Origin: Mobula birostris
Taxonomy: Eukaryota
Length of the DNA stretch: 64,000 bases
Direction of reading: 5' to 3'
Assembly (NCBI RefSeq): GCF_030028105.1
Contig: NC_092380.1
Span: forward strand, 83,945,717 to 84,009,716
Within the stretch, counting starts at the first letter, position 1, and each line of letters opens with the position of its first letter. This document shows, in pieces, positions 88 through 62,650 of this stretch. Both the position numbers and the translations under genes were made by a program. The notes under the pieces were generated by a model. The model was given only the letters and a program-made list of their open reading frames with translations. It made no database searches and was not told the DNA's origin.

Positions 88-175
88 TAACACACATCAA
101 AGTTGCTGGTGAACGCAGCAGGCCAGGTAGCATCTCTAGGAAGAGGTACAGTTGACGTTTTTCAGGCCGAGACTC
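88..175 (-). mobile_element. Penelope-like element terminal-repeat fragment, truncated inside the hammerhead motif
   Basis: Near-identical to 45123-45210. Minus strand reads GAGTCTCGGCCTGAAAAACGTCAACTG; the CTGANGA box is missing. Confidence 0.75.
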
Positions 176-633
176 TCTTGATTGTCAAAAATAAATGTAC
201 TAGGTTTTCTAAAATTGATTCCTTCTACCTTAGGTCACAAATTTATCAATCACCCCTTAAGTACAGAGATTAATTATAAGTTATATATTTCATTCCATTT
301 AATTTGATCATCTTGAATTGCCCCCTCCCCAACCAGAATCTGCTGCCTGGAGTGCCTGGTCTTCACTCCATACCCAAGAAGCTTCCCAGTAATGGAGCAG
401 AGCCCAACTGGCAAGGAGCTTTTAGGAGGTGGATTCTCGAACTCCAGGAATGATTTTTGATTTCTTGTGTCTGTGGATTATTTCCAAATGCTTCCAATAG
501 TCATAAACATTAAAATTATCCAAATAGATTTAACTCATTACAAAAGATAAAAATGTAACAAATAATCTAAAACCTACATAGATTATTATATGAAGATAAG
601 GTAAAACAAATAGAGGACTTACTTGAATTAATA

Positions 634-762
634 AACACAAGAGGTTCTGAAGATGCTGGATATCCAGAACAATGCATACAAAATGCTGAGGGAATTCAGC
701 AGGTTAGACCATAGAAATGAATAAATAGTTACAGTTTTGGGCCAAGGCCCTTCATCAGGACT
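634..762 (-). mobile_element. Penelope-like terminal-repeat fragment with degenerate hammerhead motif (726-762)
   Basis: Minus strand AGTC-CTGATGA-AGGGCCTTGGCCC-AAAA, followed by the shared CCTGCTGA..CAGCATTTTG..CCAGCATCT tail. Confidence 0.75.
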
Positions 763-20236: not shown

Positions 20237-20345
20237 AGTTCTGATGAAGAGTCTCAGCCCAAAATGTTGCCTGTTAGCTCCCCTCCATAGATGCTGCCTG
20301 ACTTGCTGTGTTCCTCCAGCATCTGCAGAATCTCTTGTGTTTATG
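20237..20345 (+). mobile_element. Penelope-like terminal-repeat fragment with degenerate hammerhead motif
   Basis: CTGATGA-AGAGTCTCAGCCC-AAAA-TGTT, then GATGCTGCCTGAC...CCAGCATCTGCAGAATC. Confidence 0.75.
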
Positions 20346-20535: not shown

Positions 20536-23049
20536 AGACAAGTTCCTTCAAAATTTTAGAGACCAAATCATCCTTAGCTTTTGCTGGTGTTAATGAAGAG
20601 AATTGCTGTTGAGTTCTCCTCAAGGGTCAACATATTCCTATTTCCCACCCTTGCACATTGAGGTATAGAGTTTTAGAACACATTGGAGTCAGATAACAGT
20701 CCTCCAGACATTCTGAGCATTGAAACAACTTATTTCTGACTTCCTAGCAGGACTATCCTATGAAACTTCATTCACTGGAATACCAGATTAGATTCAATAA
20801 TTGGATGAAGGAATGTGATTTTCTTTAAAAAAATATTTAATTAATTTTATTTGATTCACAAACTGCCAAAAGACAGCAAGGACAGTTTAGGAGCAGGGTT
20901 ATAGCTTCCATTGCCCAAGAACCACTCTACATGTGGCCACGCTGCTTTGTGACAACTAGGTTCTGGACGAGATTGGATCTGTGGGGTTATGTCGAAGAGT
21001 TTACCGTGATTTATCACATTTACTGTAAAAGAATTTCATCACCAAATTACTGTCAGAGACTTTACTCTTCTGGAGAACAGAAATAAAGACATAGACCTCG
21101 GTATATGGTTTATGCTTTAAGAAGTGATCATAGGGAGGTGTTGGCTTACGATTCTGTCGATGTCCGGTTATATCTTAAATTTATGCAGTAAATTTCGGGT
21201 AATGGCCAACAGCCAAACATACTTGGTCAGCGATTTCAAGAAGCACTTGTTGGGTACCAGCAAATCTACAAATGTACTTGTGTGATGCACAAAAATAAAA
21301 TTGCACATATATAGTCTGTTCCTCTGTTAGCTAGACAATCTCGGACAAAGGTTACAATACCTCATCACTGGCATGATCTATTGCTAGCTATTGTTAGCTC
21401 GCACAAGACAGGCAGCATCTGCATCTTATCCTGTCACCCTTATGACCCAAGTCTTGAGTAATACTTTGCTAGTCAAGCTTGATAACAAAATTTAATTCAA
21501 AATTTAATTTTGCTCTTAATTTTCTTCCATAGGTTATAAGGGGTTAATGAAACATGAGGATCATGCAGTGTATGAACACCATAGAGTGTAAAGGCAATCT
21601 GCTCAATATATCTTCATAATACAACCCCATTGTATGGAAATCATGCCACCTACAAACGAAATATGGTTGTGAATTTAACAACAGAAGGGTGTTCGGCCCA
21701 AAACATTGACAGTTTACTCATTTCCATAGATACTTCCTGACCTGCTGAGGTCCTCCAGCATACAGTACTGTATCCATAAATGATGATTCAAGCTTCAGAA
21801 ATGACTAGTTTGTGGAATTTGTTGGTGATTTTCCTCCAGCTTTCTTATTATTCACCAATTAGAGAAAAACAGTCTTCAAAGGAAGTCAAATTAAAGCAAT
21901 GGAAGTAGTTGCTAAACCATTACAAATTTGTTATTAGGGTAACCTAATTTAATGGAAATTAATCTTATTTCACAGTGATACATAGGCCTACAGCATTTTT
22001 ATCTAATATGATATTGGAATTATATTGAGATACTACTGAGCAAATAACGCATTTATTTGAAATTCTCTCTATTTATTATGTGCAATGTAACTATTATTTC
22101 GATTGCAATGCAGAGCTAATATATCCAGTTCTTGTAAAAGAGCAGAGCATAAAATTCTATTTACATAATCTTTGCGATCATGACAAATGTCAAAAATCAT
22201 AATGCAGTCACAATCAATGAGATGGTCACTGATGCACAAAATGTTACAAATGCAAATAGCATTTCATTACAGTAAGACACCACTATTTGTCTGTCAAAGT
22301 CTAATCAGCGATCACTTTGCTGCATGGCTGGTTTTAATGGCTTCTGATTAGCTATTTGGAAGAGAGTAAAATAAACAATAGAATGCTATCATCTGTATCT
22401 GGAAATAATTGTCTAACACCAACAATTCAATTTCAGTTATAGTAGAAATAGCAATTAAGGAACTCTGCCCGTTCCTATTACTAGGTGTTGGCATCGACGA
22501 AAGACTAGGGTGGGTTATGGAAGTGCCTGGTTTACCTCCCATCATGTATTCAAGCCTACTGACAGTTTTTCAATCTGTTTCTGCAGATAAGGTAAAATTA
22601 ATTTGACAAACATAATTGCCACAATGTCTAAGAAAATATATACATGAAGTATGGAAAGATACATATTTTATCGGTTGCTTATCAAACCTTAGACAAGAAC
22701 GTGGTTCATTTGCAATTCTCTTTCATTGTTACTTCAATTCCCCTTCTCCTATCAATAGTTCCACATAACATTACTACTGTAATAACACATATATTTTTTC
22801 CAGTCTGTGCTCTCTTCATTTTCTCCTTGTGCTGGGATTAATCATCAATACAACTTATATTTGTATGTAGACACTCTTGCTAAGACACATGAGTTCTAAA
22901 TTATTATCGAAGGACAACAGGTGAAGGAGAATGAGATGGAGAAATCCCACCCAGCACCTCATCACCAATCATTTTAGTGGCTGCAATTAACTGCCAATCT
23001 CCTCTCCACCTCATCTCCACAGTCTCATCCTATTTCTGCCTCCATTTGT

Positions 23050-34671: not shown

Positions 34672-37544
34672 TCAGGTGCCAATCAATATTAGGGAAGTTA
34701 AAGTCACCCATGATAACAACCCTGTTATTTTTGCACCTTTCCAAAATCTGCCTCCCAATCTGCTCCTCTGTATCTCTGCTGCTACCAGGGGGCCTATAGA
34801 ATACCCCCAATAGAGTAACTGCTCCCTTTCTGTTCCTGACTTCCACCCATACTGACTCAAAAGTGGATCCTGCTGCATTACCCACCCTTTCTGTAGCTGT
34901 AATAGTATCCCTGACCAGTAATGCCACCTCTCCTCACCTTCTCCCTGCCATCCCTTTTAAAGCACTGAAATCCAGGAATATTGAGAATCCATTCCTGCCC
35001 TGGTGCCAGCCAAGTCTCTGTAATGGCCACTACATCATAATTCAATGTATGTATCCAAGCTCTCAGTTCATCACCTTTGTTCCTGATGCTTCTTGCATTG
35101 AGGTACACACACTTCAGCCCTTCTGCCTTACTACCTTTACACCGTTTATTCTGCTTCTCTTTCCTCAAAGCCTCTCTATGTGTTAGATCTGGCTTTACTC
35201 CATGCACTTCTTTCACTGCTCTATCGCTCTAGGTCCTATCCCCCTTGCAAATTAGTTTAAACCCTCCCGAACCATGCTAGCAAACCTACCTGCAAGGAAA
35301 TTGCTCCCCCTCGAGTTCAGGTGCAACCCATCCAATCTGTACAGGTTCCACCTTCTCCAGAAGAGATCCCAATGATCTAAAAATCTAAAATCCTGCTCCT
35401 TGTACCAACTCCTCAGCCACTCATTCAACTGCCATCTCCTCCAATTCTTACCATCACTGTCACGTAGCACTGGCAGCAACCCTGAGAACGCCACCCTTGA
35501 GGTCCTGTTCTTCAGCCTTCCTGACACTCACACTTCAGGACCTCATCCCTATTCCTGCCTATGTCATTGGTACCAACATGTATCGCGACTTCTGGTTGCT
35601 TTCCCTCTCATACCAGGTGCTATTAAATACAAGTGTTATTTAAAATAATTTTCATCGCAAGTCACTGCTGGATGTTGAGTACACCAAGTACTGCAAGCCT
35701 ATCTCACCAGTGAGTTGCTGGAGAGCAGAGGAGCTGCACAGTATGGACTTATTGCATACTGCGTCATCGCCTGCTGCAGCTACCTACAGAAGAAGGCATT
35801 GGAAGTGATGTGTGAGGAAACAGGAGCATGGTAGGCACGCTGGTATTAAAGCAAGGCTAAATGTGAAACCCTACAGGCCAGTTCTCCTGACTTGTAGTCC
35901 TTGGTGTTCTTAATATCCAGCACTGTCTTGCAATCTAAGCAAGACATAAACGATGAACGATTACACCATTAGATAGACTCAGGGAGGCTGTTGCGACTGG
36001 GCATGCTGACTTCTTGAAAGAAAGAGAGTGAATTAGAATCATGTTTATTATTACTGACATACAGCATGTGATGAAATTTGTTGTTTTCTGACAACCGTAT
36101 GGTGCAATACATAAAAAAAAACTGAGTTGTAAAATAATAGTGCAAAAAAAGAACACAATTTTGAAGTAGAGTTTATGGGATCATGCACTTCAAAATCTAT
36201 ACACAGCATATGTATCATTTATGAAAGCTTGGAAGTGGTATGGATCTGATTTACATTTAGAAAAAAAACATTCTGAAGGATTGAGTTATTGAATTTATAT
36301 GCAGTTACACAGAACTTTTTTCAGATGCAAGAGTGTGATTGCAGGCATAAATTTGAAACATTACCTCCAATAATTTCTTTACATTTCTCTTTAAGATAAA
36401 AACCAGCCGTAGATAATTCCTGTTCACAGCAATCTTGTTTTCCATTGTTCTCACCCATATATTTAGGGTAGCATGGTAAATCTGCAACTTGAAAAATATC
36501 CTTTGATACCTGTCTTCAATTGCATAATCATCATAGTGTCTATATAGTTCTAACATTGCGAACTTTACCGAAGCATGTTTTAAAAAGCTGAAGGGAAAAA
36601 TTTTCTTTTTATTCGCCCATAATGGTAACATGGCTTGACAACATTTATGAATATTTATGAGATCACAATGCTCCAGTCTCCAAAAGAGACAGAATCCAAA
36701 TTCTGATACACACAGAATTTGATTAGGTTTGCTACGAAAATTGACCGTAATGTTCCATGGAATTATAGGAGCTCTACATCCATGATGACATGGAGCACTG
36801 TTTCTCTGCACTGCAGATCATTACTGTCCACTTGTCAAGATAAATGGCTGCTGCTGAAGATATTCTCAATATGAAGTAGTGTGGAGGAATAGAAAAGCAA
36901 AATACCACAGACACTAAGAATATAAATAAGAATATAAAAAGGATGGAAGCCCTCAGCTAGTTAGGTAGAAACTATGAAAAGACACCAAGATAATATTTCA
37001 GATCAAGAACTTTTTATCAGCTGGAAAGACATTTTATGGGTTTCGCTCTGGAGGCTATGAAATTACAATGATGCACTCATCCTGACTTCAAAGTGGCTGT
37101 AGGACTAAAGAAACTTCCAGAAAAAGAAATTATTCAGATTTTTTTTTGTGTTTACAGTATGTCAACTTTTCTTTAAATCTCTCTATCTATGACTAGCCCT
37201 AAGATGCTGCTCTCCAACTGCAACACCTCTCCCTCAGAGTTGGTATTCATTTCATTCAGCCACTACCTTCTTAAGAAATTGTATCTGCTTGAATATTATA
37301 TTTGGCAGAGCAATGCAGGTACCATTATCTTTCTGATTAAAGATACTTCTCTCAGAATCTCTTCACTCTCATTGTGGCAATTTAAAATAATAAATGATAA
37401 ATAATAAACTCCCAGGTCCCTTTTAAAATTTTCTCCTCTCAACTTGAATCTTTGCCTCCTTGATTTAGATTCCCCTGCCCTTTGAGAAAGACTGTTACCG
37501 TTCACCTTATCTGTACCCCTCATAACTGTAAACATTTCTACATG

Positions 37545-38628
37545 ATTGCCCGTCATCTCCTCCATTTCCATGTGGGTTCACCTACATCTCCTCCATTTTC
37601 CGCACTTCGGCCCTCACCCCATCCTCCCGTCACCACAACAGGGACAGAGTTTCCCTTGTTCTCACCTACCAGCCCACCAGCCTCCGGGTCCAGCACATTA
37701 TCCTCCACAACTTCTGTCACCTTCAACAGGACCTCACAACTAAGCACATCTTTCCCTCTCTACCCCTCTCTGCTTTCTGCAGGGATCATTCCCTCTGCGA
37801 CTCCCTGGTCCACACGTTCCTCCCCACGGATCTCCCACCCACTTACCCCTGCAAGCGTAAGTGCTACACCTATCCCTACACCTCCTCTCTCACCACCATT
37901 CAGGGCCCCAAACAGTCCGTCCAGGTGAGGCAACACTTCACTTGTGAGTCTGTTGGGGTCATCTATTGAATCCAGTGCTCCCGGTGCGGCCTCCTTTGCA
38001 TCAGTGAAACCCGACACAGATTGGGGGACCATTTCGTCGAGCACATCTGCTCTGTCCGCCGCAACAGACAGGATCTCCCAATTGCCACCCACTTCAACTC
38101 TGCTTCACATTCCCATTCGGATATGTCCATACATGGCCTCCTCTACTGCCATGATGAGGCCAAACTCAGGTTAGAGGAGCAACAGCTCATATACCGTCTG
38201 GGTAGTCTCCAGCCCTTTGGTATGAACATTGAATTCTCCAACTTCCAGTAATTCCCTCCCCCTCCCTTCCCCCATCCCAGTTTCACTCCGCCCCCTCCTC
38301 CAGCTGCCTATCACCTCCCTCATGGTTCCACCTCCTTCTACTACCCATTGTGCTTTCCCCTATTCCTTCTTCACCTTTCCTGCCTATCCCCTTCCTGCTT
38401 CCCCTCCCCCACCACTTTTTCTTTCCCCTTACTGGTTTTTCACCCGGCACCTACCAGCCTTCTCCCTCCCATCTTCCCCTCACCTTCTTTATAGGGCCTT
38501 TGCCTCCTCCCTCTTCAGTCCTGACGTTGACTGTCCATTTCCACGGATGCTGCCCGACCTGCTCAGTTCCTCCAGCGTGTTGTGCGTGTGGCTTTGACCC
38601 CAGCATCTGCAGAGTCTTTTGTGTTTAC
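37545..38628 (+). mobile_element. Penelope-like retroelement 3' part (GIY-YIG endonuclease remnant plus terminal repeat)
   Basis: FTCESVGVIY*IQCSRCGLL..SET..RLGDHFVEH..PIATHFNS..EEQQLIYRLGSLQPFGMN, followed by a pyrimidine-rich 3' region and the shared terminal repeat. Confidence 0.88.
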
Positions 38629-39285: not shown

Positions 39286-40189
39286 CGCTAATTTATCAGA
39301 CAAGATATGCAGATTGAGAGACAGAGTCACCCAGAGGAGGAAAAGTTAATGTTCCGTTGGCAAAGCAGGCAAGTAAATGCACTTCAAGGGAGTACAAAGT
39401 TACATCAAGTATAGATATACAGTATTTTATTACAAGTTAAAAAATGTAAAATGAAGCTCGTGGCCCAGATTTATTCCTCTCTATAGATGCTACCTGACCT
39501 GTTGAGTTCTTCCAGTATTGTGTATGTTACTCTCGAACTCCAGCATATGCAGAATCCCTTGTGATTTTTATTGCAAGGTGTCTAAAATTATTTAGATAGA
39601 TGAACTCAGTGCTTTAACTAACACATGAAACTGTTCTTGTATTGTTGTCCTCACTAAGACATAGTTGAGAACAGGCAGGACAAGCAACTCAGTGTCATGG
39701 AACTTCAGGCAAGACTGAGGAGAATATAAAAGAGAAGGTGTCATTTTCACTGTTAGTCAGGGAATGCATTACTTCAGTATTGAGAGAGGATATCCTAGAA
39801 GGATCCTGAAATGATGAGATTAAAATAGAGATTTAGGAACAGCACATTCCTGATGGGCCGAATGGCCTAGTTCCATACTGTGTGACTCTTTGACTTTATG
39901 AACAGGCATGACAAATTTCATGATGCGCGCCGGTGATAATAAACCTCTGATTCTGATTCTGACCGGAAACATGCATGCAGAGGATAATGCATTGAACACT
40001 GAGGAAATCAATAATTCTACAAGAGCACTTAACTGTGACTTTGGAATGGCCAAAAGGTTGAAGGGCTTTATCTGAATAAGGCATCAATTAATTTTGCATC
40101 TATACCAGTTTAAGGATGAGAAAGAGACAACATTAAAAAATACATAATGCATCAGCTTTTGGCTGTATTTACTGATTGAACCAGATTGT

Positions 40190-40650: not shown

Positions 40651-40820
40651 TTTTGCTGAAGTTATATGTTGTTCAGTAAGACATTATCTGTGCGGTTCTT
40701 TCCTTCTGTGATTTGGTGTGAATCTTGTTTGATAAATTGGTGTACAGCCCTTCAGTGTATTTTGTGACATCACAAGTACTATGCATGAAAGTTATTGTTG
40801 TTATAATGAAGTTCTTTGGG

Positions 40821-42476
40821 GATGACCTCACAGTCACCACAGAATCAGTCCCAGGCTGCCAGAGGATTCTGCAAGGGCTCGAAAAGCTGGTGGAGTGGGC
40901 CCAGATACGTTTCAAACCTACCAAATCAAGATCAATGGTGCTGAGGAAAGGGAAGGTGGAGAACAAGTTCCGGTTCAGCATCGCAGGCACAGCCATCCCA
41001 ACCATCACAGAAAAGCCAGTCAAGAGCTTAGGCAAAGTTTTTGACAGCTCTTTAAGGGACACAACATCCATTCAGGGAACCTGCACCGAGTTGGAGGGCT
41101 GGCTGAAATCTGTGGACAAGTCTGGCCTACCTGGGAAGTTTAAAGCCTGGGTGTATCAGCATGGCATTTTTCCCAGAATCCTGTGGCCCCTCCTCGTCTA
41201 TGCAGTTCCGATCTCGACAGTCGAAACCTTAGAGAGGAGGGTTAGCAACCACCTCAGGAGATGGCTGGGGCTGCCAAAGAGCCTGAGCAACATCACACTC
41301 TATGGACACCACAACAAACTGCAACTGCCTTTCAAAGCCTTGGAGGAAGAATTCAAGGTAACAAGAGCCAGAGAAGTGCTACAGTATAGGGACTCAAGTG
41401 ACCCGAAGGTGGCTAGAGCAGGGATCCAAGTAAGTATTGGCAGGAAGTGGAGGGCAGAGGAAGCTGTTCAGGAGGCAGAGGTGAGGCTGCGTCACAGGAG
41501 GCTGGTGGGAGTGGTCACACGAGGCCGAGCTGGGCTAGGGTCATCTCCAACTCCCCAAATGGACACCAGAGGGAAGGAAAGGCGTCGTCTAGTTCAGGAG
41601 GAGGTGAGAGCAGTAGTGGAGGAGATGAGAGCCTGCAAGGCGGTAGGAATGAAGAAACAGGGAGCTTGGACAAGATGGGAGAATGCGGTTGAGAGGAAAG
41701 TGACCTGGGCTGATCTTTGGAAAGCCGAACCACACCGCATCCAATTTCTCATCCAGGCAGTGTACGATGTGCTTCCAAGCCCATCAAACCTGCACACATG
41801 GGGCAAGGCAGAGTCATCTGCGTGCCCACTGTGCTCCAAGCGAGGAACCCTGGAGCACATCCTCAGCGGCTGTGCAAGGGCACTTGGTGAGGGACGGTAC
41901 AGGTGGAGGCATGATCAGGTCCTGAAGACCATCGCTGAAGCCGTCAGCGCAGGAGTTGAGTGGGCGAAGCAGTCCCGACCCTCCAAGCAGACCATTGCCT
42001 TTGTCAGAGCTGGGGAGCAGCCAATACCTGCCAAAAGAACATCTGCAGGCATTCTGACCTCTGCAAGGGACTGGCAGCTGTTGGCAGACCTCGAAGGGCA
42101 GCTGAAGTTCCCCAACCATATCGCAGCTACCACCCTGCGACCAGACATTGTCCTAGTGTCTGAGTCTACTAAGCAAGTGGTGCTGCTGGAGCTGACAGTC
42201 CCATGGGAAGATAGCTTGGAGGAGGCCTTTGAAAGGAAGCTCTCCAAGTACGCAGGACTGGTCAGCAACTGTCAGCAGGCTGGATGGAGAGCGAGGTGTC
42301 TCCCAGTGGAGGTTGGTTGTAGGGGATTCATAGCCCGTTCTTTAGTTAGAGCCTTCAGCATTTTGGGCATTGAGGGAGAGAGGAAGAGGAGAGCCATCCG
42401 CAGTACCACCGATGCAGCAGAGAAGGCCTCAAGATGGCTGTGGCTCAAAAGAGGGGAGCCATGGAGTCATAAGTAG
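40821..42476 (+). CDS. Partial RT / CCHC zinc finger / PD-(D/E)xK restriction-like endonuclease ORF (no true start codon)
   Basis: DDLTV...FKPTKSRS...KSLGK; CPLC-x7-H-x4-C; RHDQVL; RPDIV...ELTVPWE...KLSKY; no stops over 551 codons. The first 32 aa of the tracked ORF are flank read-through. Confidence 0.85.
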   Translation, partial: DDLTVTTESVPGCQRILQGLEKLVEWAQIRFKPTKSRSMVLRKGKVENKFRFSIAGTAIPTITEKPVKSLGKVFDSSLRDTTSIQGTCTELEGWLKSVDKSGLPGKFKAWVYQHGIFPRILWPLLVYAVPISTVETLERRVSNHLRRWLGLPKSLSNITLYGHHNKLQLPFKALEEEFKVTRAREVLQYRDSSDPKVARAGIQVSIGRKWRAEEAVQEAEVRLRHRRLVGVVTRGRAGLGSSPTPQMDTRGKERRRLVQEEVRAVVEEMRACKAVGMKKQGAWTRWENAVERKVTWADLWKAEPHRIQFLIQAVYDVLPSPSNLHTWGKAESSACPLCSKRGTLEHILSGCARALGEGRYRWRHDQVLKTIAEAVSAGVEWAKQSRPSKQTIAFVRAGEQPIPAKRTSAGILTSARDWQLLADLEGQLKFPNHIAATTLRPDIVLVSESTKQVVLLELTVPWEDSLEEAFERKLSKYAGLVSNCQQAGWRARCLPVEVGCRGFIARSLVRAFSILGIEGERKRRAIRSTTDAAEKASRWLWLKRGEPWSHK

Positions 42477-42625: not shown

Positions 42626-42644
42626 GGAGGACTGCATAACAGTG

Positions 42645-42800
42645 ACTCCTTCTCCCTTCCTTGCCAGTCCTGAAGAAGGATCTTGGCCTAAAGCGTCAAC
42701 TGTTTATTCTCATCCATAGATGTTGCCAGACTTGCTGAGCCCCTCTGGCACATTATGTGTACTACTACAGTTTTCCAGCATCTCCAATACCTCTTGTGCC
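42645..42800 (+). mobile_element. Penelope-like terminal-repeat fragment with degenerate hammerhead motif (42665-42702)
   Basis: CAGTC-CTGAAGA-AGGATCTTGGCCT-AAAG-CGTC-AACTG. Confidence 0.72.
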
Positions 42801-45122
42801 TGTAATAGTGAAATGTTTGAATTAGTCCATTTTTATACAAAAGTGAAATATTTGAATTAGTCCATTTTTACCATTTTATAATTGATATTTTGGCTTTTCT
42901 TTGAATGCCTATTTCACCTTAATCTTACAAAAATGTATGTTATCTAATTTAACTTTTCAATCTATCCTATTAATTAGGGAATCTAATGACTTACAACATT
43001 AGCATTCTCAGATGAATTCAACTTACAGTGATTTGGATTTGATGGAGAGATTAATTGCATGCTCTCATCATTGTTCTGCTCTTACACAGCGGCAGTCTGT
43101 ATGCTGCATTACACTGGAAAAGATATTAATAAAGGTATGCCAGTTGTAAACAGCTCTTTGCATATTCTCAAAGATATTTTTTTTCAGATAACAAGAATAA
43201 ATGTTTTGTAAGACATGAGAATGATTTCCTGCTCTATGTCAATGAAGACTCAGATGGAAACCTACCAAATTTTAAAATGGTAGAAAATGATGTAGGGTCC
43301 CTTACATACACAGTATATGCTCCTCCCACTCTGTTTTTTTATGTCCTGGCAAGATATTGTCATTGTTCAATGCCATAATTTAATTTAAATGATATAAAGT
43401 AACAATAACGAAAACTAGAAACTTTGATCACATATTTCCCTGAATCTGTTGATGTTCAAGGTCATGGTGATAATTTACATTCCAAGATTAATGATAGTGA
43501 AAATTATCTTTGTTTTATTTTAGTACTACAAGCTAAAATGAACCTTTCCAATAGCATTCCACAAAATTCCCTCTCTTAAATTATTCTTGAATATTTGTTT
43601 ACTGACACAGTGTCCTTCATTTAAAAGTTTAAGAGTTCTTAGTGGAAGGGTGAAATGCTTAGGGTGAGACTGAAGAGGCAGTTAAAATATAGAATTAGGA
43701 GTTACTAGCAGTACCTTTTATGAAGAAAATTGACTCTTTCAGGCATTATCATTGAAATAAATTAAGGTAAGGTTTAGCAAGTCTCTACACAATGTTAACA
43801 GGATCTATCACTTAATTAATCTACTGTGATCAGTCATCTTTCATACATCTGCTTTTTTCTGTCTACATGCTCTCTCCTCTACCAACGGTATGTGAATTCA
43901 GAATTAAATACCATCTTTTGCAGGACTCCTGTGTAATTCTTCAAGACAAAAGTAAGTCAAGGGGACTGCAGTATTTCTATTTCACTGAGTGGTACATCTA
44001 TCACATGCCACCAACCAGTTTTGGAAAATTAGACTTCTTGATGAACAGGTGGAGTTCTGCCACAGCAACAATGAAGCATAAATCTCCTCTTGATTGTGTG
44101 ATTTGCATTGGTGGAGTGTATCTTCTTAATTGGTCTTTAAATCCTTTGTGCAACAAACTACTATGCTGATTTCATTTTCACTTCAGAGATAAGAAGCCTG
44201 TTGTTTTCATTTGTTGCTGGCTTCTACTAGCAACGCACTGAGGTTCTGAGACCCCGGATCTCCTCAATTGTAGGTTGCCAAGCAGAGAAGGTGAATTATT
44301 ACACATTACAGTATTGGGTTGCAATGAGACCTGCAGGCGTGTGTGGGGCGCCAGAGAGCATTGGGCTCTGATGTTTTCAAAGCACATGAAGTGGTTAATT
44401 GTTGTTTAACAACAGTTTTTTATTGTTTGGAGTTTCTTGCACTTTTCTCAAGCGACTCGTTCTTTTTAATGTAGTCTCCTAGTGCTTTCTGTTTAAGCTT
44501 GTTAAGTTTATCTTGATAGGCTCAGGGATTCTGTGTTATTTGAATTATTTAAGCAGATATCCTATTAGTGCTAATTGCGGGGTCATAGTTTTGAGAATGT
44601 TACTTCTCACAGTGTCACTGGGCTGAGCCACCCATGTTCATTTGGAATTATTATGAATAAACTCTTATTACCACCTCTACATTGGAGTCTGTCTTTCCTC
44701 TGCACATGGGTTCCAATGTTGCCAGCACACATTGTGATGGAAGGGACCTGCCAAGTAACGGACCCAGCAGAGGTTAAGCAGCAACGTTTTGATATTCATT
44801 GGCTTTAGGTGAGAATACGATCTATTCTGAAGTCCATGTTCTGAGATTTTCCAGTCCATATTCTGAGGTTCTCCAGTTTCAGTTCAGTTTTTCAAATTGT
44901 AAGTACTGAGATTCCCAGCTTTGGGCTCCCATGACTCAGGTCTGCATAACAATTGAGTGCTTCAAGCAAGCTTACTGATAAAGTTCATTTGATGTAACAA
45001 ATCAGCATTCAAGTCAATAGTGCACAAGTGTCTCCTGAAACAGTAAATTGAGTTTGCAACCCTGTAGAGCCCTGCTCCAAATCTGGAGTTTGCAAACACA
45101 CAAGTAAAGTAACACTACCAAG

Positions 45123-45559
45123 AAACACACATAAAGGTTGCTGGTGAATGCAGCAGGCCAGGCAGCATCTCTAGGAAGAAGTACAGTCGACGTTTTGGGC
45201 CGAGACCCTTCGTCAGGACTAACTGAAAGAAGAGCTAGTAAGAGATTTGAAAGTGGGAGAGGGAGGGGGAGATAGGAAATGATAGAAGACAGAAGGGGGA
45301 GGGATGGAGCCAAGAGCTGTACAGTTGATTGGCAAAAGGGATATGAGAGGATCATGGGACAGGAGGCCTAGGGAGAAAGAAAAGGGGGAGGGGGGGAACC
45401 AGAGGACAGGCAGGGGGTATAGTGAGAGGGACAGAGGGAGAAAAAGGAGAGATAGAAAAAGAATGTGTGTATATAAACAAATAAATAAATAACAGATGGG
45501 GTACAAGAGGGAGGTGGGGCATTAGCGGAAGTTTGGGTAGCCTCCAACCTGATGGCATG
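45123..45559 (-). mobile_element. Penelope-like element 3' fragment with short 5' inversion
   Basis: Matches the 38240-38600 architecture on the minus strand; 45534-45559 is plus-strand GSLQPDGM-coding sequence. Confidence 0.82.
45184..45220 (-). ncRNA. Minimal type I hammerhead ribozyme motif, best-preserved copy (G12A variant)
   Basis: Minus strand AGTC-CTGACGA-A-GGGT-CTCG-GCCC-AAAA-CG-TC-GACTG: helix I AGTC/GACT, helix II, palindromic ACGT helix III, GUC cleavage triplet. GAAA is changed to AAAA. Confidence 0.72.
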
Positions 45560-47229
45560 TAATAGACCTTCAACTATCAAGAGTAAGCTTCCTTTTATGT
45601 AACCTCTTGATGAAAATCATGATACAGGCTGCAAAAATTGAACCTTCAGGGAGCAAATGAAACATATCTACAGAGAGCCAGATAGCTCAGTGAAAAGAAA
45701 TGCCTGTCTATGCTGTCTCAATCTATAAAATTGAGAGTCCAGCCTTCTGTATCCTAAATGCCTTTGGAAAATTAGTGAAGTGCAAGCCACTGTGAGAAAA
45801 ATCCTTCCAGGATCCTTTCTTAGGTTTTGAGTTCCATGTTTTCAAGGAATCAAGTTTCTGGGCTTTTTCTAGCTCTCGAAGCTTTATCACAGTCTAAGTG
45901 TGCCAGTCTAAATGCTCAAGGTCCTCAATGTTCTCAAGGATCTCAAGTCTCTCAAGGTTCTCAGTTCTCTCAAGGTCATCTGGACTGCTAAAGTAATCTA
46001 GGTTCTCAAAGTTTTTAGGACTTCCCAAAGTTTCCCAGAATTTTTCAATGTTTCTATTGTTTTTTCAATGTTTCCAAAATTTCTTCAATGTTCTTCCCAT
46101 CTTGATGATTCCCAAGTCTGTCTGCCTTTTGGCGTCCACATGTCTCTCAAGTCATCTCTGGATTTCAGATTCTCCCTGGGCTGTCTAGTACTGGCCATGG
46201 TGGTGGGGAGGATACTGCAATGAGTTCTTTGGGTCTGTGTGATAGCTCTGAGGTTTTTTAGAGTACCCGAACTGGTTAGTTGGTGTTTACCAAGAGTCAT
46301 TAATCATCTAGAGCTCCTTCTGTTTTTCTTGAGTGACTTGCTCTTTGCAAAGCAGTTCCAACGTGCTTTCTGCTTACGTTTTTTACGTTTATTTTGATAG
46401 GCTTGGAGATCCTGTGTTATGATGTTCATTTGGAATTATTATGAATAAACTAGCATTTTCATCTCTACATTTGAGTCTGTCTTTCCTCCAAACTTGGGTT
46501 CTGATATTGCCAGCACACATCGTGATACTAGGTGGTAATGTATAGGGTATCTCCTTTCCACCTCTAGTGCAAAAGATGGATCAAGAGGTCCTTTAAGCCT
46601 TTAGATGTATTTATTGTCTCTTAGGTGAATCAAATCAATCTTTCAAACCTTGTAGTATCAAATGTAACAATCTTGTAAATAATCAGTTAGTTTTGCATTC
46701 TCAGTGCGATTTCAGGAGCTTAATTTGAGTATTTAATGCAGCATAACGTATAAGCTGACGTAATTGGAAGAGAATGCTCATAGTTAAACCACAGTTGTTT
46801 CCACAGACTCAGTGTGACCAGTACATGCCCATAATTACCACACCAATACAAGCTTCTACGTTGTGAATTTAGTGGCTGGAGCTAATTGTAAACAATAATA
46901 AATAATACTGCAACTACTCAGCAGGTCAGGCAGCAAGTGTGGAGAGAACAAAAGACAGAGCCAATATATTGGATTGATTACTTCTAATCAAATAAATGAA
47001 ATGTTAGAAAGATAGTATGTTTTAAACTACAAAATAAAGGAGGTGCCTGTGCTCCGGTAATATTTGTAATAGGATAGAAACCGATTTAAGTGCTTTCATG
47101 GTGGTAGTTGCTGAGTGAGGGAGCTGGAGAATTCTTAACCACATTGTTCTTTCTGGAGAAAATATACGTAAAGGGAAATAAATGAAAAGAGAGGGAAAAA
47201 GCAAAGATTTGAAGTGTGAGATGCAGAAC

Positions 47230-47570
47230 CCAGTATTTGCTAGAAACTGAAAAAAAAATTTGCAGGTCAGATAGCATCTGTGGAGGAAGAATTACACAGG
47301 ATAATAAACTTGCATCAGAGCTAGCTAGCACTGATGCAGACTGGAAAGGCTGAAACTAATGATTTTGAACAAACGATGTTGAACTTTGAGGAAAATAGGT
47401 ACCTGGTATACAATCAAATGCCGACATTTGAGCTTATATTGGTCTTGATTGGAAGGATGGAAAATGCCAAAGACAAGAAGATTAGGGTGCAAGTCAGGTG
47501 GAGAATTAAAGGGACAGGCAACTAGAAGCTTGAATGGCATTTCCATATTTTCCATCTGGATTGGAGCAAT
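47230..47570 (-). mobile_element. Old Penelope-like fragment
   Basis: Degenerate LLVACPFNS..YKLKCRHLIV similar to the GIY-YIG C-terminus at 38085-38250; GATGCT..CTGACCTGC tail. Confidence 0.5.
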
Positions 47571-49143: not shown

Positions 49144-49810
49144 GGGCTGATTTATACTTCTGCATAGTAGCCTACGCCGTTGTGAGCATTTACACTGGTG
49201 TGACTGTGTTGCTCTGCAATTCACGGCCTAAATGCTAGTTGGCGATGGGGTTTCTATGCCACTGTGTTGAGTTTCTTCGTGTTGAAACTCAACACCAAGA
49301 AACTCAAACTTCAAACAATGGCGACTGAAGCTGAAGGAGGGTGAATTTTCTGTGCTTGTCCAGCCACTGAGAGACATGGACGAGGAAATGCATTTCAAAT
49401 ATTTTCGGATGTTGGCAGGTAGATTCCGTCGCGTCCAACCATTTATTTCGCATCAGTGTACGCACAGTGTACTCAGAGACTAGCAATCACCATTCGAGTT
49501 TTAGCTTCAGGTAGAAGTCAACAGGCTGTAGCAGCTAGCTACAAACCGGCATCAAGCACAGGGTCCTCCATAATTTCGGATGTCTGTAAAGCTTTATGGA
49601 AAGCACTGCAGTCAGAGTTCCTTCCCTGCCCTTCAGTCGCCCAATGGGAAGATATTGCAGCAATGCTACCAAGCAGACCAATCACAGTTGTTGCAGTCTG
49701 TGTCACCATGACACGTAGTTACATTTTTGGGGAGGTGCGTGTCAGGCTACACTGTAGGTATGGTGTAGGGTATGCGGCTATGCCGTACCTACGGCGTCAA
49801 TTTAACGCAC
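49144..49810 (+). mobile_element. Non-autonomous PIF/Harbinger element, right TIR lost
   Basis: Left TIR GGGCTGATTTATACTTCTG; transposase N-terminus [33 protein letters not shown]; paralog of 51306-52034. Confidence 0.82.
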
Positions 49811-49819
49811 AGGCCTTTA

Positions 49820-50669: not shown

Positions 50670-50770
50670 TTGCAACACACATAAAATGCTGGAGGAACTC
50701 AGCAGTTCATGCAACAGCTACAGAAATGAAAAAAAGTCAACTTTTCAGGCCAAGACCCTTCATCAGGACT
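50670..50770 (-). mobile_element. Penelope-like terminal-repeat fragment
   Basis: Shared tail plus a hammerhead motif at 50735-50770. Confidence 0.75.
50735..50770 (-). ncRNA. Minimal type I hammerhead motif retaining both CUGAUGA and GAAA
   Basis: Minus strand AGTC-CTGATGA-A-GGGT-CTTG-GCCT-GAAA-AG-TT-GACT. Helix I is intact; the helix III palindrome is altered. Confidence 0.62.
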
Positions 50771-51305: not shown

Positions 51306-52034
51306 AGGCTGATTTATACTTCTGTGTAGTAGCCTACGCCGTAGCCTACGCAAGTGGCCTACGCCGTTATGAGCATTTATACTACTGCATTGGTGCGTCT
51401 GTGTCGCTCTACAATTCACCGCCAAAACACTAGTTGGCAGTGGGGTTTCTATGCCACTGTGTTGAGATACTTTGTGTTGAAACTCAGCATGAAGAAACTC
51501 AAACTTCAAACAATGGTGACTGAAACTGAAGGAGGGTGAATTTTCTGTGCTTGTCCGGCCATTGAGAGACATGGACGAGGAAATGCATTTCAAATATTTT
51601 TGTATGTTGGCAGGTAGATTTGACGACTTGGTTCATCGTCTCCAACCATTTATTTTACATCAGTGTACACACAGTATACTCTAAGACTGGCAATCACCAT
51701 TCGAGTTTTAGTTTCAGGTGGAAGTCAACAGGCTGTAGCAGCTAGCTACAAACCAGCGTCAAGCACAGAGTCTTCCTTAATTTTGGAGGTTTGTAAAGTT
51801 TTATGGAAAGCATCGCAGCCAGAGTTCCTTCCCTGCCCTCAGTCGCCCAATGGGAAGCTATTGCAGTGTTGTGGAAATGCGATGCTACCAAGTGGACCAA
51901 TCACAGTTGCTGCGATCTGCGTCGCTGCAATGTGTAGTTACATTTTTGGGGAGGTACGCATCAGGCTACGGTGTAGGGTACACGGCTACACCGTACCTAC
52001 AGCGTCAATTTGACACACAAGTATAAATTGGCCT
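51306..52034 (+). mobile_element. Complete non-autonomous PIF/Harbinger element (729 bp)
   Basis: 22-bp TIRs with 19/22 match (AGGCTGATTTATACTTCTGTGT); flanks TTA/TCA; subterminal GCCTACGC repeats; HARBI1-like N-terminal coding remnant. Confidence 0.88.
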
Positions 52035-53544: not shown

Positions 53545-53710
53545 GTGGCTGGGGTCTAGAGGCTTGGGCTGCAGGCTGAAGTCTTGGTCTTGAGGCTTGA
53601 GCTTAGGGTCTAGGACTTGAGGCTTGAAGGCTGGGGTCTTGGTCTTGAGGCTTGAAGGCTGGGGTCTTGGTCTTGGAATGTGGAGGGTGATAACTCGGAG
53701 GCTTGAGCTC
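53545..53710. repeat. Degenerate ~28-bp tandem repeat
   Basis: GGCTGGGGTCTTGGTCTTGAGGCTTGAA units. Confidence 0.75.
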
Positions 53711-53894
53711 GGAGACAGACTGGGAACTGTACATCAACAGAGAGCCGGGGACCTACCCTTCAAAAAGCCGGGACTCATCTTTAACTCGACACTAACATGA
53801 GACTGGACAGCATATAGACATAGAGCCAGGACTCATCCATAGACAAGCCAGGACTCAACTTTATCTCCACACCTAGGTGGCACAGGTCCACCTG

Positions 53895-54222: not shown

Positions 54223-54894
54223 AAACACAAAGAATGACAGACAGTTCCACCTCTGCTCCAGGGTAGCTCCGAGTCTCAGTTCGGCCAGCAACTTCAGCTG
54301 GCTACAGAAACAGCCAGATCCCTACCTAGATTGGAGTGGCTGGTAGCCACTTAGTCAGCCTGGGAAACAGCTGAATCCTACTGCAAAGACAGCTCCGACT
54401 ATCGACAGCAAGGCTCCATGAAGAGATGATTCTTCAACACTGCCTGAAGTTGACAAGTGGCCATTCTAGCCTTCCACCAGCAGGTTGCTCTCAGGGGATC
54501 TTGACAAGACAAACCAGCCCCCCACACTCAACCCCAAGGCTACTTATATTCCAAGCCCCAAGATGGGAATCAGGTGCCTATGATTAACTCAACCAAAACA
54601 AGGGACAGCTGGAAGACCTGGAGTCCTGAGTCCACGGACCGGACCATGAACCGGAATGTGGACTTCACAGACCAGACCATGACATAAACACTCTTAAGCA
54701 CAATGAAAACAAAACAGACATACCTGCGATGAACTGAGCTGTATCCACTTTTCCATTCCAGACCACTAGTGTTTCCATATCAGACCACGATGCAATCAGT
54801 CAAATACTCTCCACTGTGTATCTATAAAAGTTTGTTAAAGTTTTTGATGACACGCCAAATCTGTGCACACCTCGAAGAAATTAGAGAGGACAGA

Positions 54895-55242
54895 ATTCTT
54901 GAACTTCCGGTAATGCCCCCTTTCCTTTACCATTCCCCATTCCTATTTTCCTCTCTCACCTTATCTCCTTACCAGCCTATCACCTCCCTCCTTTTTGCTC
55001 TACCATTGCCTTCTGTCCTCTACTGTCAGATTCCCCCTTCTCCAGCCCTATATCTCTTTCACCAATCAACTTCACTGATCTTTACTTCACCCCTCCCCTC
55101 TCCTGGTTTCACCTATCACCTTGTGGTTCTTCCTCTCTTTTCGGTCAGTCCTAATGAAAGGTCTTGGCCCAAAACGTTGACTGTACTCTTTTCCATAGCT
55201 GCCCTCTGGCCTGCTGAGTTTCTCCAGCATTTTGTGTGTTGC
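54895..55242 (+). mobile_element. Penelope-like 3' fragment with degenerate hammerhead motif (55146-55183)
   Basis: AACTTCCGGTAA ORF end, pyrimidine tract, CAGTC-CTAATGA-AAGGTCTTGGCCC-AAAA-CGTT-GACTG. Confidence 0.78.
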
Positions 55243-55311
55243 AAGAAATTAGAGATGCTGCTTTGCTTTCTTTAAAAAGGCACTTACGTGCTATTCGTAG
55301 GACAGATCCCC

Positions 55312-56887: not shown

Positions 56888-59699
56888 TATGATAATGCCC
56901 AGGAACTTGAAGTTACTGACCCTCTCCAACTCTGAGTCCCTTAGGAGCACTTGCTTGTAGACCCCCAATTTCTTTCTCCTGTAATCAATAATCAGCTCTT
57001 TGATTTTGTTGTCTTTGAATGAAATTAACTCTGGTCTCACCCTAGTAATCGTTCCGCTAATCCACCACCCCTTCTCTGAAACTGAAAATAGATGTATTTT
57101 CTCTCTTTTACAGTTCTGATGAAATGCCCCGGACTTGAAATATACATTCTCTTTCTCTTTCCACAGTGGCTGCCTGACTGGATGACTGTTCAGGAAAATT
57201 GGAATGTACAGTTAATTTGCCAAACAATATCCGCATTCCATGAGTGAATGAGACCAGACCTGTTCTGTCTTATCCTAGCAGAGATAAAATCCTTTTGTGC
57301 CAATAATATTTCTCCATCTTGGGATGTAACCTTTGTGGTGTTTACCTAGATTCTACAAGGTGCAACAAATGTTCTGATAAAACATCGATTGGGGTGAAGA
57401 TGGGTTAATTCCAATGGTGTCGTCTTAACCCTATGAATATTGATGTTCATTGAAAATGTTCCTGAATGTTTAAAAATGACATGAAAGTAGGGGATCATGC
57501 CAGCATATTCTACCTGAAACTGAAGGGTCACTGGGTCAGGTTCTGCAGTGGCAGTCAGGGGAAAATGAGCAGGTGATTAGGGAAATGACCATGACCTGGC
57601 TATGGGAGAGAGCAGAATTTTCATGATCTATAGGATTTTCAGCGTCACGGTCTATGCCATTTTGGTAATTTTTGGGACTGTGGCATATCAATCGGGGTGA
57701 GAAGGAGCAGCAGCAGGGAGGATAGCTGGTGAAAAAGGTGGCAGTTTGGTGAGGGGAATACTAGGGTTAAGGGATGAGGACAGAGATAGCATTGAATGAA
57801 AATGATACTGAAAATTGTAGCTAAGTATTTGAGCTCATTAATGAGGATTGACTCTAACCAAACGCCGAAAAAGGCACCCTCACCTCAAAACCTCTGGTAG
57901 GCTCCATTGTTTAAAATCCCTGTGACATGCCAACAAACGTGCCATACCTATTTCAGTGTTAACATTTAAGTCTGTCCTCCTGAAGTATTATCTTTCTGAG
58001 CTCGTTACCTTGTGAGTTCAAATGGGTGAAGCCATTAAGCTGCTACAATAATACATCATATTATTTCTTATAAATCTATAATGTTTTACTTTGAAGTGGT
58101 AGTAGATGTTAATCCTGATCAGACCTATTTCATATACGCATAACACAAATGAGTGTTCAGATTTTGGGTCATAAAGTCATTGGACTCAAACTCCATGGGT
58201 TTCCAATCAGCCCTTTATCAATCAACTCTTTAGGACACAAGCCTGTCACAGTTAAGTGTCTGGAAAGCTGAAAGTGCCTGCACTGATACAGAACAACTGT
58301 GTGCAAAAGTCCACCTGGAAGCCAACATCTGTCGAAAGGAAACAAACCCAAGGTGATGAGGAAGCTACGTGAGTACTGGAGTGTTGGAGTGCTGTTTGAT
58401 GATTCTGCAGCTGACAGCTTCCTGTGGGTTTGATTGACAGATCAATCAGGATGTGTAAGTCATTGACATGGGACATGAAAGACATGAAAGGAACAACAAG
58501 TATAACTAAAACACAACTCAGTGGGGAAAATAATATAAATATTCTGCTGAGGAAGAGATCTCAAATTTCAAAAGGTCAATCATTTTGCTATTAGCATAGG
58601 GAAAAACATGGTTAGAATACTGTGAGAGTTAGTGTTGAAATATGTATTATTATTATTATTATTATTGTTATCACTAATGGTTATTGTTATATGGTTAATA
58701 AATGCAGAGAACCTTAGCAAAACTGGGTTCCACCATTAAAGTTCAGCAACAGGGTAGCATGGCAGATGTCATAGCATCTGCAACTCAGCAACCCCATGGG
58801 CTTAAGTGGGCCTGCTTTAATCTGGGACTAATTTACACAGGAATGGTAAAATACCAGCGTTTCCTTTCAGAACCATCAGCCAAATCCCACCCATGTCTGC
58901 CACTTAGCCTTTTAAATTACTCTTTATGCTTGTCCACTTGCTTATATATCTGTTCCTTTTTATTATTATGAGAAAAGACCGATTCATTTCTCTTGAAGCA
59001 GAGGAGTTTGAATGACGATTTAACAGCTATTTACAAAATAATGCACAGAATAGGTGGCATAGGTAGTCAGAGGTGTCCAAAGCCATAGAGCATGCTCTTA
59101 AGGTTAGGGGTAAATTGACTTAATCAGATATGCATGAGTTTTGAACCTAGTTTTAGAAAGTGGGATTAGGTTGGAATGTTCCTTTTAAACTAGCACAGGC
59201 ACTCGTGCCGAATGTCCCCTTCTGTATCATTAATTTTCTGTGATTCTCACACCTCTGCATGTGTTGGACATGTGCCCACTGGCTTTTCCTGCAACTTTTC
59301 GGATGTAACCAGGGCTGTCATTCTACAAATTGCCAGCAAGCTTTCCTGAAAAAAAAACACTTGAAAATGTTAAAATTATTGGCCAAAGAAGACTTCATAT
59401 TGTAAAAACAGATCAAAATTCTTAATTATCAGTTCGAATTACAATGGTTTATGTTCTTGCGGTGTAATTCTTCCAGTGTATGAACATAAAACAAGAGTAA
59501 TGGAAATGCCTGAATGTTTATAGTCAAAGCAGATGGGCAATTTCACCAATATGAGACTGCTGATTTAAAACTATTTGCTATGGTTTATTGCTCTGCTCAC
59601 CAAAGAGATGTAATGTTCATATTTTCACAGTACCTTATATTCTCAAAAGTATTGTTTCATCTTGATGCTAACAATATGCTTGTATGTCTACATTAGTGT

Positions 59700-62650
59700 A
59701 GAGAACATCCACAAGAAAGAAAGAGAATTTGAAAACAATAATCTATAAAGGAGATCCAAAACACAGACAAATAAATCATAGGACTTAAGATGCTACATAG
59801 GTGGTCTTTCAGATGCCTGTGTCTGCTCTGGCTTTTGACTAGAGCATTGCCCAACCCTCTGCTCTTTTCCAAAGTCTCTTGAAGGTCAAAATGGAGACTG
59901 CCTCCATCACATGCAAGTACCATCTTCCAGAGTTCAACCATATAGAATGTAGAAAAGATTTTCCTCAAGTCATTATTAATTTTCTTCCCATTTAGTTATT
60001 TACAGTGTCTAGTACTCACTCTGTTCAGTGAATGGGTAAAACTCCCATTATTCACTGTATTCAAGTTTCTTATCATTTTATATATATTTCCATCTTCTGC
60101 CTACAACTTTTCCTTCTCCAAGGAAAACTGTCCCATATCTTCAAATCTATCATTGTAATCTTCTCTAGACACTCTTCTGTGCCTCCATATCTTTCCTATA
60201 CAGTATTGAAATAACTAGAAAATAGCTCTATTCTCTAGTTGAGGTTAGATTAGTATTATGTAAACACTCAATGCAATTTTCCTACCTTCATGCTGTATGC
60301 CTCTATTGAAAGTCCAACATTTTTCACACCTTATTAATTGCTCTATTATTTCTGCTATAATCAATGTTCTATGCAAATATATCCCCAGGAATCTTTGCTC
60401 CTGCACTCTTTTTACAACTGTATCCTATATTCCATATTGTCTCTTCATATTCTTCCTACCAAATTGTATCACTTGACATATCTCTACATTTAACCTTTGC
60501 CTACTCTGCCTATCTATTTATAAACTGCTGTGAAGAATCATTTTGCTCTTCACTTTTCAAAATCCTGCCATATTCTGCATCATCCACACATTTTATTTTG
60601 GTTTGCTTCTCCAGATGTTTGTCATTAATCTAGATCAAAAGTACTAATGACACTATTACCAATCACAGGAGAATACCTCCATTTATCCAAACCAAGAAAA
60701 TCCATGACTCTCTGCTTTCTGTTACTTAACCAACATTATGTCTGTGTTATTAACGTCTCTTTGCTCCTTAGCATTTTATGCAGCACTTTATCAAAAGCTT
60801 TCTAGAAGTCTACTGGATTACCTCATCAACTATATGCATAGTCCTACCAAAAAGAAATATCAAATTGGATCAGCACAATTGCCCTTAACAAATCTGTGCT
60901 TGCTTGCTTTAATTTGTTTTTCTTTGAGTGGCTATCGTTCCTATCCCAGACAACTGCTGGTTAAAGTTTTACCAACTTTGAGGTTATAATCAAAAGGCCT
61001 ATAATTGCTGGGCTTATCTTTGCTCCCCATTTTGAAGCGGGGATAACATTTACCACAGTCTTGTCTGCTGACAATATTCATGTTCAAAAGCGCATTGAAA
61101 GATTATGATCAGTGCCCATGATTTTTTTCAGTACTCTTCTCAAAATCCTAGCAGCAGTTCTATCTGGTTGAGATGACTTAGCTACTTTAATTTCAGCCAA
61201 CTTCTCTAATCGCTCCCTTCCATCCATTTTTATTATGGCTGGTGAATTAACCATCTTCCTTTTCACTACTAATTTGGAAGCACCTTCTTCCTTATGAAGA
61301 CAGATGCAATGTATTCACCTAGCATCTTAACAATATCCATCTATGTGCAAGTTACCATTTTTGTCCTTAATAATCTTTATATGCCAATAAAATATTCCCA
61401 TTTATCTTATCTAAACTTTCTAGAAATGTTTTTTTGTTGCCTTTCCTGTTTCGTTCTTTTACTTTCTCTCCAATTCTTTTGTTATTAACCTGGTTCTTTT
61501 TATTTTCAACCCCTCACTTGTCATACGCCATCACCCAGGACAGGCCCTCCTCTCATTGCTGCTATCAAGGAAGAGGTACAGGAGCCGGAAGCCACAAATT
61601 CAATGTTTAAAGAACAGCTTCTTCACCTCTGCCATCTATTGTTTTTTTTTGTATTATGTATTTAACTGTATTGCTGCTGCAAATCAATGAATTCCATGAC
61701 ATATACCTAATTCTAAAGAGGACTTCTAATATTTTACTTTGCTCTGTACCTCTTTTGTTATACAAAGTGTATAGGAGTTATTTGATTTTCCTTTGATCCA
61801 TGTATTCCTTAAATATAGACCATTGTTCTGACATTGTTTTGCCTGTCATATTTTGGTTCCAATATTCCAGGGCTAGTTCTATTAATGAATTATTCTAATC
61901 TTGGATCACCCCGTTGACTTTTCCATAACTAACATAAATATTTTGATTTTATGATCATTATTTTGTAAATTGTTACTGGATTGTAACTTGGTGTGCTTTT
62001 CCACCTTATTCCCTGGAACCAGATCTGCCATTGGCTCTTTACTTGTTGGACTAGAAGCATACTGCTCTAGAAAATTATTGAGAGCAAATTTTAGAAACAC
62101 TTCACTCTCTCTGCCCTTCCATATATCCTTTACATCCATATAATTACCTATAACTACACCTTTATTTTGCATTTCTTTAATCTCTCTACACGGCCCCTGC
62201 TTGAGGGTGATCTATAGAAATCACCGAGCGGAGTTTTGTTCCCTATACTGCCTCTTGGTCATAATCAAACAGATTCTGTCTTTGATCCTTCTCTACCAGA
62301 TTCTCTGTTCAGAATTATACTAATTCCTGCTGAGTTCCTCCAGCATTTTGTGGGTGCTGCTTGGATTTCCAGCATTTGCAGATTCTCTCTTATTTGTGAT
62401 TAGGTTTCACCTCTATTCATTTATTTCATTCCTTTTCTTGAACACTCTCATTTCGGAAATGTTTAATGCCCAATCTTATCCCTATTTGATCCAAATTGCT
62501 ATTACTGTCGCATCACATTCCCACACGTTACACATTCACATACAATCGAACCTATTCATATCATTTCCGTTTTGTCTGATCCTGGCAAAGTCCTAACATT
62601 GACCTAATCTAGTGTAAACTGTCTTCTCTATTGCTTTTTGCATTTTTGCC
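59700..62650 (-). mobile_element. Old, highly decayed CR1 LINE with small nested fragments
   Basis: VVIGNY..FLEQYASSPT..DLVPGN (APE), KVAKSSQPD (linker) and NYRP-like remnants on the minus strand. Confidence 0.65.

Follow-up and report, generated by a model that had tools for sequence, protein, structure and literature searches.

Penelope-like elements (PLEs) of metazoans carry minimal hammerhead ribozymes in their pseudo-LTRs, which cleave weakly and only as dimers, and descriptor searches have returned ~4,000 such motifs in the coelacanth and ~9,000 in Xenopus (Cervera and de la Pena, 2014; PMC4209133). Cleavage of PLE hammerheads as dimers is the subject of Lunse et al. (as cited in PMC6765202), and position 12 of the hammerhead core serves as the general base (PMC6155905). 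Among the PLEs, a CX2-5CxxC linker is a mark of Neptune and Nematis (Craig et al., 2021; PMC8557442). Work on PAc, a Poseidon element of Anolis carolinensis, tied the optional tail of PLEs to two internal starts of reverse transcription; cleavage took place solely with the PLE protein and was not needed for insertion, and RNA reads ending at the cut were absent (Frangieh et al., 2024; PMC11167929). In non-LTR retrozymes, units a few hundred bp long are repeated in tandem, with each unit spanning hammerhead to hammerhead (Cervera and de la Pena, 2020, PMC7229834; Li et al., 2026, 10.64898/2026.07.22.740005). The up to 120,000 motifs given for the axolotl in a section title of PMC7229834 mean that large motif pools have precedent.

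We analysed a window of 64,000 nucleotides from the ray Mobula birostris (NC_092380.1, positions 83,945,717 to 84,009,716), in which a sequence-only reading had listed ten hammerhead motifs and ascribed them to a very large, Penelope-derived family of short repeats. All ten were found again at the same coordinates and on the same strands (10/10), at a density of ~1 per 6 kb, nearly all of them decayed. We put at roughly 85% the probability that these motifs are the 3' ends of 5'-truncated PLE copies, which would have arisen by internal target-primed reverse transcription of an uncut hammerhead, often ending at its 5' edge, and then decayed neutrally. A 25-nt motif pattern with up to 3 mismatches matched the window 3 times, against 0 matches in 100 shuffles. 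A profile built from the ten copies recovered all ten and five extra family fragments (E<0.001; best match in the reversed-window control, E=0.23), which the first reading had omitted: 39470 (+), 62326 (+), 46916-46949 (-), 36943-37020 (-) and 47262-47287 (-). A remnant of the motif is kept in two of these (39437-39565 and 36943-37020), while the other three start downstream of it. Searched against Rfam with E<=5, the window gave no match to any hammerhead family, its 3 matches being at chance level and all under the gathering scores, and the motif pattern had 0 matches in the viral and metagenome contigs scanned. The size claimed for the family was borne out by public contigs, of which 51,699 in run X1 and 81,366 in run X5 matched the 801-bp stretch 44960-45760. 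Their summed depth, used below, is weighted to young copies and is not a copy number. Since the copies in the window are decayed, a count of them reflects relics and not working ribozymes.

The motif is described here from the anchor copy at 45184..45221 (-). It has a 5-bp helix I, a CUGACGA box (CUGANGA), an extra A, a 4-bp helix II from G10.1-C11.1, then positions 12-15.1, C15.2, G16.2, U16.1 and C17, with an ACGU palindrome and a GUC site; the cut is predicted between 45189 and 45188, and the core carries a mutation of G12 to A at 45196. The call of a minimal type I hammerhead thus stands, as the layout is that of the consensus in Fig. S3 of PMC4209133. Common to both are the type I arrangement, CUGANGA, the extra base before helix II, G10.1-C11.1, GAAA, palindromic positions 15.2/16.2, the lack of helix III and a pyrimidine-rich upstream flank, and in both cases most motifs are dispersed singly in truncated PLEs. 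The closest rows of that figure are Ixodes scapularis (1) and Strongylocentrotus (1), and the rows of Fig. S3 and Table S1 that were consulted hold no cartilaginous fish. The ray motif differs in its short helix II (4 bp), and the clustering of 5' ends at helix I described below does not appear in the available parts of PMC4209133.

The GAAA that the first reading had taken as the consensus holds for the family and fails as the majority in the window, where the 9-copy alignment has A at position 12 (G12A in 6/9 copies). In contigs aligned to 44960-45760, G at 45196 makes up 82% of summed depth in X1 (3.94M/4.82M) and 81% in X5, both DNA runs, 93% in X17 (presumed RNA) and 90% in X18, and this presence of G12 in 81-93% of the depth shows that the GAAA consensus is right for the family. 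The CpG at C11.1-G12 is kept in none of the nine copies (CA in 5, TA in 1, TG in 2, and a divergent copy at 57111), CpG decay having destroyed it after insertion. C11.1 is read as U in 38-59% of contig depth and G12 is changed in at most 7-19%, an asymmetry that would fit source elements which tolerate a wobble pair yet keep the catalytic base, the depth being weighted to young copies. No copy in the window has an intact core and palindrome together. A descriptor scan of both strands passed one of the ten, 50735, which has all 11 core bases; it has A at 15.2, so that the palindrome is lost and the self-complementary dimer helix cannot form. Helices I and II are complementary, with 74% of 77 cells paired across nine copies vs 20-44% in slid controls, but covariation in these nine decayed copies was no better than in shuffles. 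In single-strand folding, the anchor 47-mer alone formed helices I and II, with the core mispaired (z -1.9), and the other 6 sequences folded unremarkably. Judged by their sequences, the copies in the window are decayed and likely would not cleave.

The Penelope origin proposed for the repeats is confirmed by a linked GIY-YIG open reading frame (ORF), a tail, target-site duplications and a 5' inversion. The ORF was found in a 5'-truncated PLE at 37540..38627 (+; 5' end approximate), which also holds the core-deleted hammerhead at 38516-38533, with 20 nt gone between two ACG triplets, and a 3' segment with the tail. Its decayed ORF end (~37574-38251, +) has one in-frame TGA and encodes a Zn-finger linker and a GIY-YIG/CCHH nuclease, followed by a pyrimidine-rich UTR; the stop lies 265 bp before the core-deleted copy on the same strand. 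Translated with X at the internal stop, the ORF matched three proteins among 277 candidates at 67-78% identity, all annotated in rays (Hypanus sabinus and Mobula hypostoma), and 37574-38242 is 76-78% identical to P0002 and P0003. The ray homologues carry reverse transcriptase motifs, the CX2-5CxxC linker and a GIY-YIG domain, the Pfam scores of these fragments being just below the cut-offs; the window's own decayed protein had no Pfam match. Among cluster representatives, 1,006 relatives were recovered at E<=0.001, and five full-length proteins of 813-924 aa are 31-41% identical to the decayed ORF over ~220 aa, with P0086, the one of the five that was scanned, passing the Pfam cut-offs for both RVT_1 and GIY-YIG. 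Reverse transcriptase motifs are confined to the homologues P0002-P0004 and P0086, their absence in the window copy being due to its truncation, and the linker is seen in P0002, P0003 and P0005, its final Cys having decayed to Tyr in the window copy. P0002 and P0004, which are Penelope ORF fragments, are annotated as isoforms of ray host genes (kinase-domain and chitinase-domain proteins), in what looks like mis-annotation or exon capture.

By these motifs, the host element is likely a GIY-YIG Penelope-like retrotransposon of the Neptune clade, the linker being common to Nematis. It has in common with the Neptune endonuclease-positive PLEs of Craig et al., 2021 the C-terminal GIY-YIG with CCHH, the CX2-5CxxC linker, heavy 5' truncation, an inverted 5' piece, an optional 30-40-bp tail and a hammerhead near the 3' end. 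It differs from what the available text of that paper describes in having AT-rich duplications only, with no (TA)n target, and in the absence of a full-length or tandem copy in the window (PMC8557442). Neither a full-length element nor a copy with two pseudo-LTRs was found within the 64 kb. Three of the ten listed copies reach back to the ORF stop through a UTR of 260-280 nt, 70-100% pyrimidine.

The anchor is one of these insertions. Delimited by tblastn of P0003, its duplication and the contigs, it occupies 45124..45572 (-; ~449 bp) and consists, in order, of 13 nt of filler, an inverted piece, the last ORF codons, the pyrimidine-rich UTR, the hammerhead and a 3' segment without the tail. 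The inverted piece at its 5' junction is 27 bp of the ORF end (45533-45559, +), found by tblastn of P0003, and the insertion is bounded by a 10-bp target-site duplication with 1 mismatch (45573-45582 and 45114-45123). In public contigs of the flanking repeat, 45114 is connected to 45574, an empty site that agrees with the anchor duplication to within 1 nt. The anchor sits inside another moderately repeated element (44960-45113 and 45574-45760), which is covered by ~20-35 contigs per position, several of them joining across the insertion. A second long copy at 54893..55242 (+) runs from the last ORF codons through the UTR and a hammerhead at 55146-55183 (G5A, G12A) to the 3' segment, with an exact 13-bp target-site duplication at 54875-54887 and 55243-55255.

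The remaining copies are shorter. The copy at 90..184 (-) starts from helix II (motif 149-175) after 9 filler bases, within a 15-bp duplication with 1 mismatch (185-199 and 75-89); that at 630..762 (-) starts from helix I, with G12A and the tail, and has a candidate 9-bp duplication that overlaps its 5' end. Two others with G12A are at 20237..20343 (+), which starts from helix I and has a tail after an internal deletion, without a junction duplication, and at 21684..21761 (+), which starts within the CUGANGA box. The copy at 42646..42802 (+; 157 bp) starts 24 nt before the CUGA box and ends with the tail, its hammerhead (42665-42702) carrying G12A and A15.1G, and it is bounded by a 9-bp duplication with 1 mismatch (42637-42645 and 42803-42811). 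The copy at 50672..50770 (-) starts from helix I (motif 50735-50770) and has no tail, and 57097..57180 (+; ends approximate) is an old divergent copy with a hammerhead remnant at 57111-57147. Among those missed by the first reading, 39437..39565 (+) has a badly decayed motif, the 3' segment and the tail within a 12-bp duplication with 1 mismatch (39425-39436 and 39566-39577), 36943..37020 (-; nhmmer E=4e-4) is a very old copy with a hammerhead remnant, and 62326..62389 (+) starts downstream of the hammerhead and comprises 3' segment and tail only. The fragments 46916..46949 (-; E=2e-5) and 47262..47287 (-; E=9e-4) also lie downstream of the hammerhead. Junction duplications of 9-15 bp were thus present in 6/12 copies tested (149, 726, 39470, 42665, 45184 and 55146), each with P=0.013 to 0.0004 against a position-matched null, and were not found in the other six (20237, 21684, 38516, 50735, 57111 and 62326).

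Other repeats lie among these copies. The frame at 40722-42476 (+; 584 aa) belongs to another non-LTR retrotransposon, which we take to be R2/Hero-like; it has weak Pfam matches to RVT_1 and zf-RVT, ends by eye in a PD..D/E-type nuclease-like motif, and its 3' end falls just before the 42646 Penelope copy. Two LINE 3' fragments in opposite orientation (11354-12121 and 31345-32111) are 96.7% identical over 768 bp, which points to a young family, and long frames with reverse transcriptase and endonuclease are present at 30065-31414 (-) and 32497-34485 (-). Repeats of ~650 bp at 49166-49811 and 51353-52019, 82% identical and with frames that have no Pfam match, flank the 50735 copy. GC-rich minisatellites at 28500-29016 and 53547-54223 (periods 58, 35, 28 and 67 bp) overlap no hammerhead copy.

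The 3' ends of the copies take two forms, the ~35-bp tail being present in six and missing from four of the ten copies whose 3' ends were compared. PAc likewise has two alternative 3' ends beyond the hammerhead, separated by one tail length, as well as AT-rich targets and copies that include the uncut hammerhead (PMC11167929). The two differ in that Poseidon lacks the linker finger and belongs to another clade, and in that the ray 3' segment has no predicted conserved stem-loop: run on this segment from 10 copies, RNAalifold found 0 pairs, which gives no support to a conserved stem-loop for initiation.

The short copies near helix I are a real class, as the first reading had noted, although they measure ~78-157 bp and not 100-130 bp. 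Nine of the 15 5' ends, which were set by hand, fall between -22 and +5 of C3, a stretch of 27 nt around helix I; three are at +30 to +61, none lies between -25 and -250, and three reach the ORF end or extend past it. A uniform distribution of 5' ends is rejected (null P=5e-5, 13 ends in range) and clustering holds, spread over ~30 nt. A single-exponential truncation null gave P=0.003, rising to P=0.06 when the three long copies are left out; simple random truncation therefore fits badly, and a termination hot spot must be assumed. Because the profile was seeded on the motif itself, shorter fragments lying downstream of it are under-represented in this tally. In the papers searched, largely open access, neither this ray family nor a clustering of 5' ends at helix I was found described.

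Such a class might suggest a self-propagating, SINE-like non-autonomous unit: copies of 90-160 bp that descend from the terminal repeat of the PLE, have their transcription start at helix I and rely on the PLE protein in trans to move. The clustering of nine of 15 5' ends speaks for it, as do the duplications that bound 149, 39470, 42665 and probably 726, by which these copies were already short at insertion. It is also favoured by loose contig ends at 45218-45219 (231 and 304 contigs in X1; 300 at 45219 in X5), whose consensus turns AT-rich within ~13-17 letters, as flanking DNA would (agreement 0.32-0.35, top rows), and which hint at the same short class in public DNA contigs. A larger peak of loose ends at 45220 mostly runs on into the UTRs of other subfamilies (top rows). 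However, short copies group with long ones: 149 is 90% identical to the long 45184 (FastTree support 0.999) and 59-68% to other short copies, and 50735 is closest to the long 55146 (80%). The tree, which covers window copies only, resolved the pair 149/45184 and no other node, so that it leaves room for a short-copy lineage among older copies. The 5' ends moreover vary over ~30 nt, the tails are variable, a common head sequence is absent, and the DNA runs, in which young copies are favoured, retain 88-92% of the summed core depth at a point 12 nt upstream of C3. The short class does not behave as a separate element, and we regard mobilisation as a SINE-like unit as improbable.

The proposal of a retrozyme-like unit fared no better, the ends being scattered and no tandem array being present. 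Under it, tandem units would be cut at successive hammerheads, circularised and re-inserted as monomers. The likeness is not negligible, since both are PLE-related, non-coding and of type I, with dispersed monomers possible, and a preprint reports that one chondrichthyan has both tandem retrozymes and PLEs and that Xenopus has dispersed monomers (10.64898/2026.07.22.740005). There are also a few low-depth back-joints in contigs, one of which (X1, 45188 to 45141, depth 40) has its first base at G1.1, directly after the predicted cut. A monomer defined by cleavage would, however, start after GUC, whereas the ray copies are single, include the whole motif and form a continuum with PLE copies that bear ORF sequence. 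Most ends lie ~30 nt upstream of the cut, a position that self-cleavage cannot produce, and two small fragments begin close to +30 of C3. The 16 tandem repeats listed for the window are all clear of the copies, the back-joints have a depth of at most 80 among those listed against millions for the motif, and the motif is of the minimal PLE type, retrozymes carrying the canonical type in the parts of PMC7229834 available. We therefore consider a retrozyme origin very improbable indeed.

A third possibility, which is a sub-case of truncated copying from an uncut PLE template, is that the pyrimidine tract and YAG before U2.2 act as a 3' splice site or transcription start, such that the template RNA begins at helix I. 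All six copies with upstream sequence (6/6) have pyrimidines and then CAG or TAG at helix I, in Drosophila virilis Penelope the 5' strand of helix I marks the end of the intron (PMC4209133), and in an X17 contig of depth 43 a joint connects 45293 with 45218, which directly follows the AG. This joint is a single contig and as mapped has no GT donor, the AG is also part of helix I, which would account for its conservation otherwise, and the 5' ends are not precise to the base. No shared first exon was found upstream of the short copies, by eye or by self-comparison of the window. We hold such a defined start to be possible but doubtful. A bolder version, that ray and shark PLEs mass-produce hammerhead-capped minis of 90-160 bp through an RNA start at helix I (a promoter or 3' splice site) and run-off of internally primed reverse transcription, some minis perhaps being re-mobilised in a SINE-like manner, is somewhat less likely still. 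Also at the 5' edge of helix I, opposite-strand joints at 45177-45220 (one contig of depth 505 in X17, three contigs in X5) suggest inverted copies joined there.

We infer that internal priming on an uncut template would proceed as follows. The PLE protein would nick AT-rich DNA and reverse transcription would start inside the RNA, by analogy with the anole PLE. Two start sites, ~65 and ~100 nt past GUC, could give the observed copies without and with the ~35-bp tail. Synthesis would then pass upstream through the uncut hammerhead and most often stop at its 5' edge, which is the start of the pyrimidine-rich UTR, while less often it would extend to the ORF end or beyond. The products are bounded by duplications of 9-15 bp, at times with filler bases or a 5' inversion. 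In intact tandem source elements, going by the literature, the motif would act in dimeric form or be assisted by the PLE protein. The DNA runs have no depth step across the cleavage site (X1, 4.50M at 45180 vs 4.82M at 45196), which accords with unprocessed RNA as the main substrate (PMC11167929). The presumed RNA runs X17 and X18 contain the family too, and the depth change across the cut site is opposite in the two.

The class of motif has been known since 2014, and what is added here is a cartilaginous-fish family to the pairing of ribozyme and retrotransposon. Motif counts of this kind consist mostly of CpG-decayed relics. If the pile-up at helix I holds genome-wide, it would locate the end of Penelope reverse transcription and would mean that copying usually takes place on an uncut hammerhead, a point of relevance to the role of PLE ribozymes in vivo, and a genome this rich in copies would make the pattern of 5' ends directly measurable. 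A defined RNA start at helix I, if true, would account for the abundance of solo minimal hammerheads across animal genomes and would provide a genomic read-out of the 5' position of Penelope RNA.
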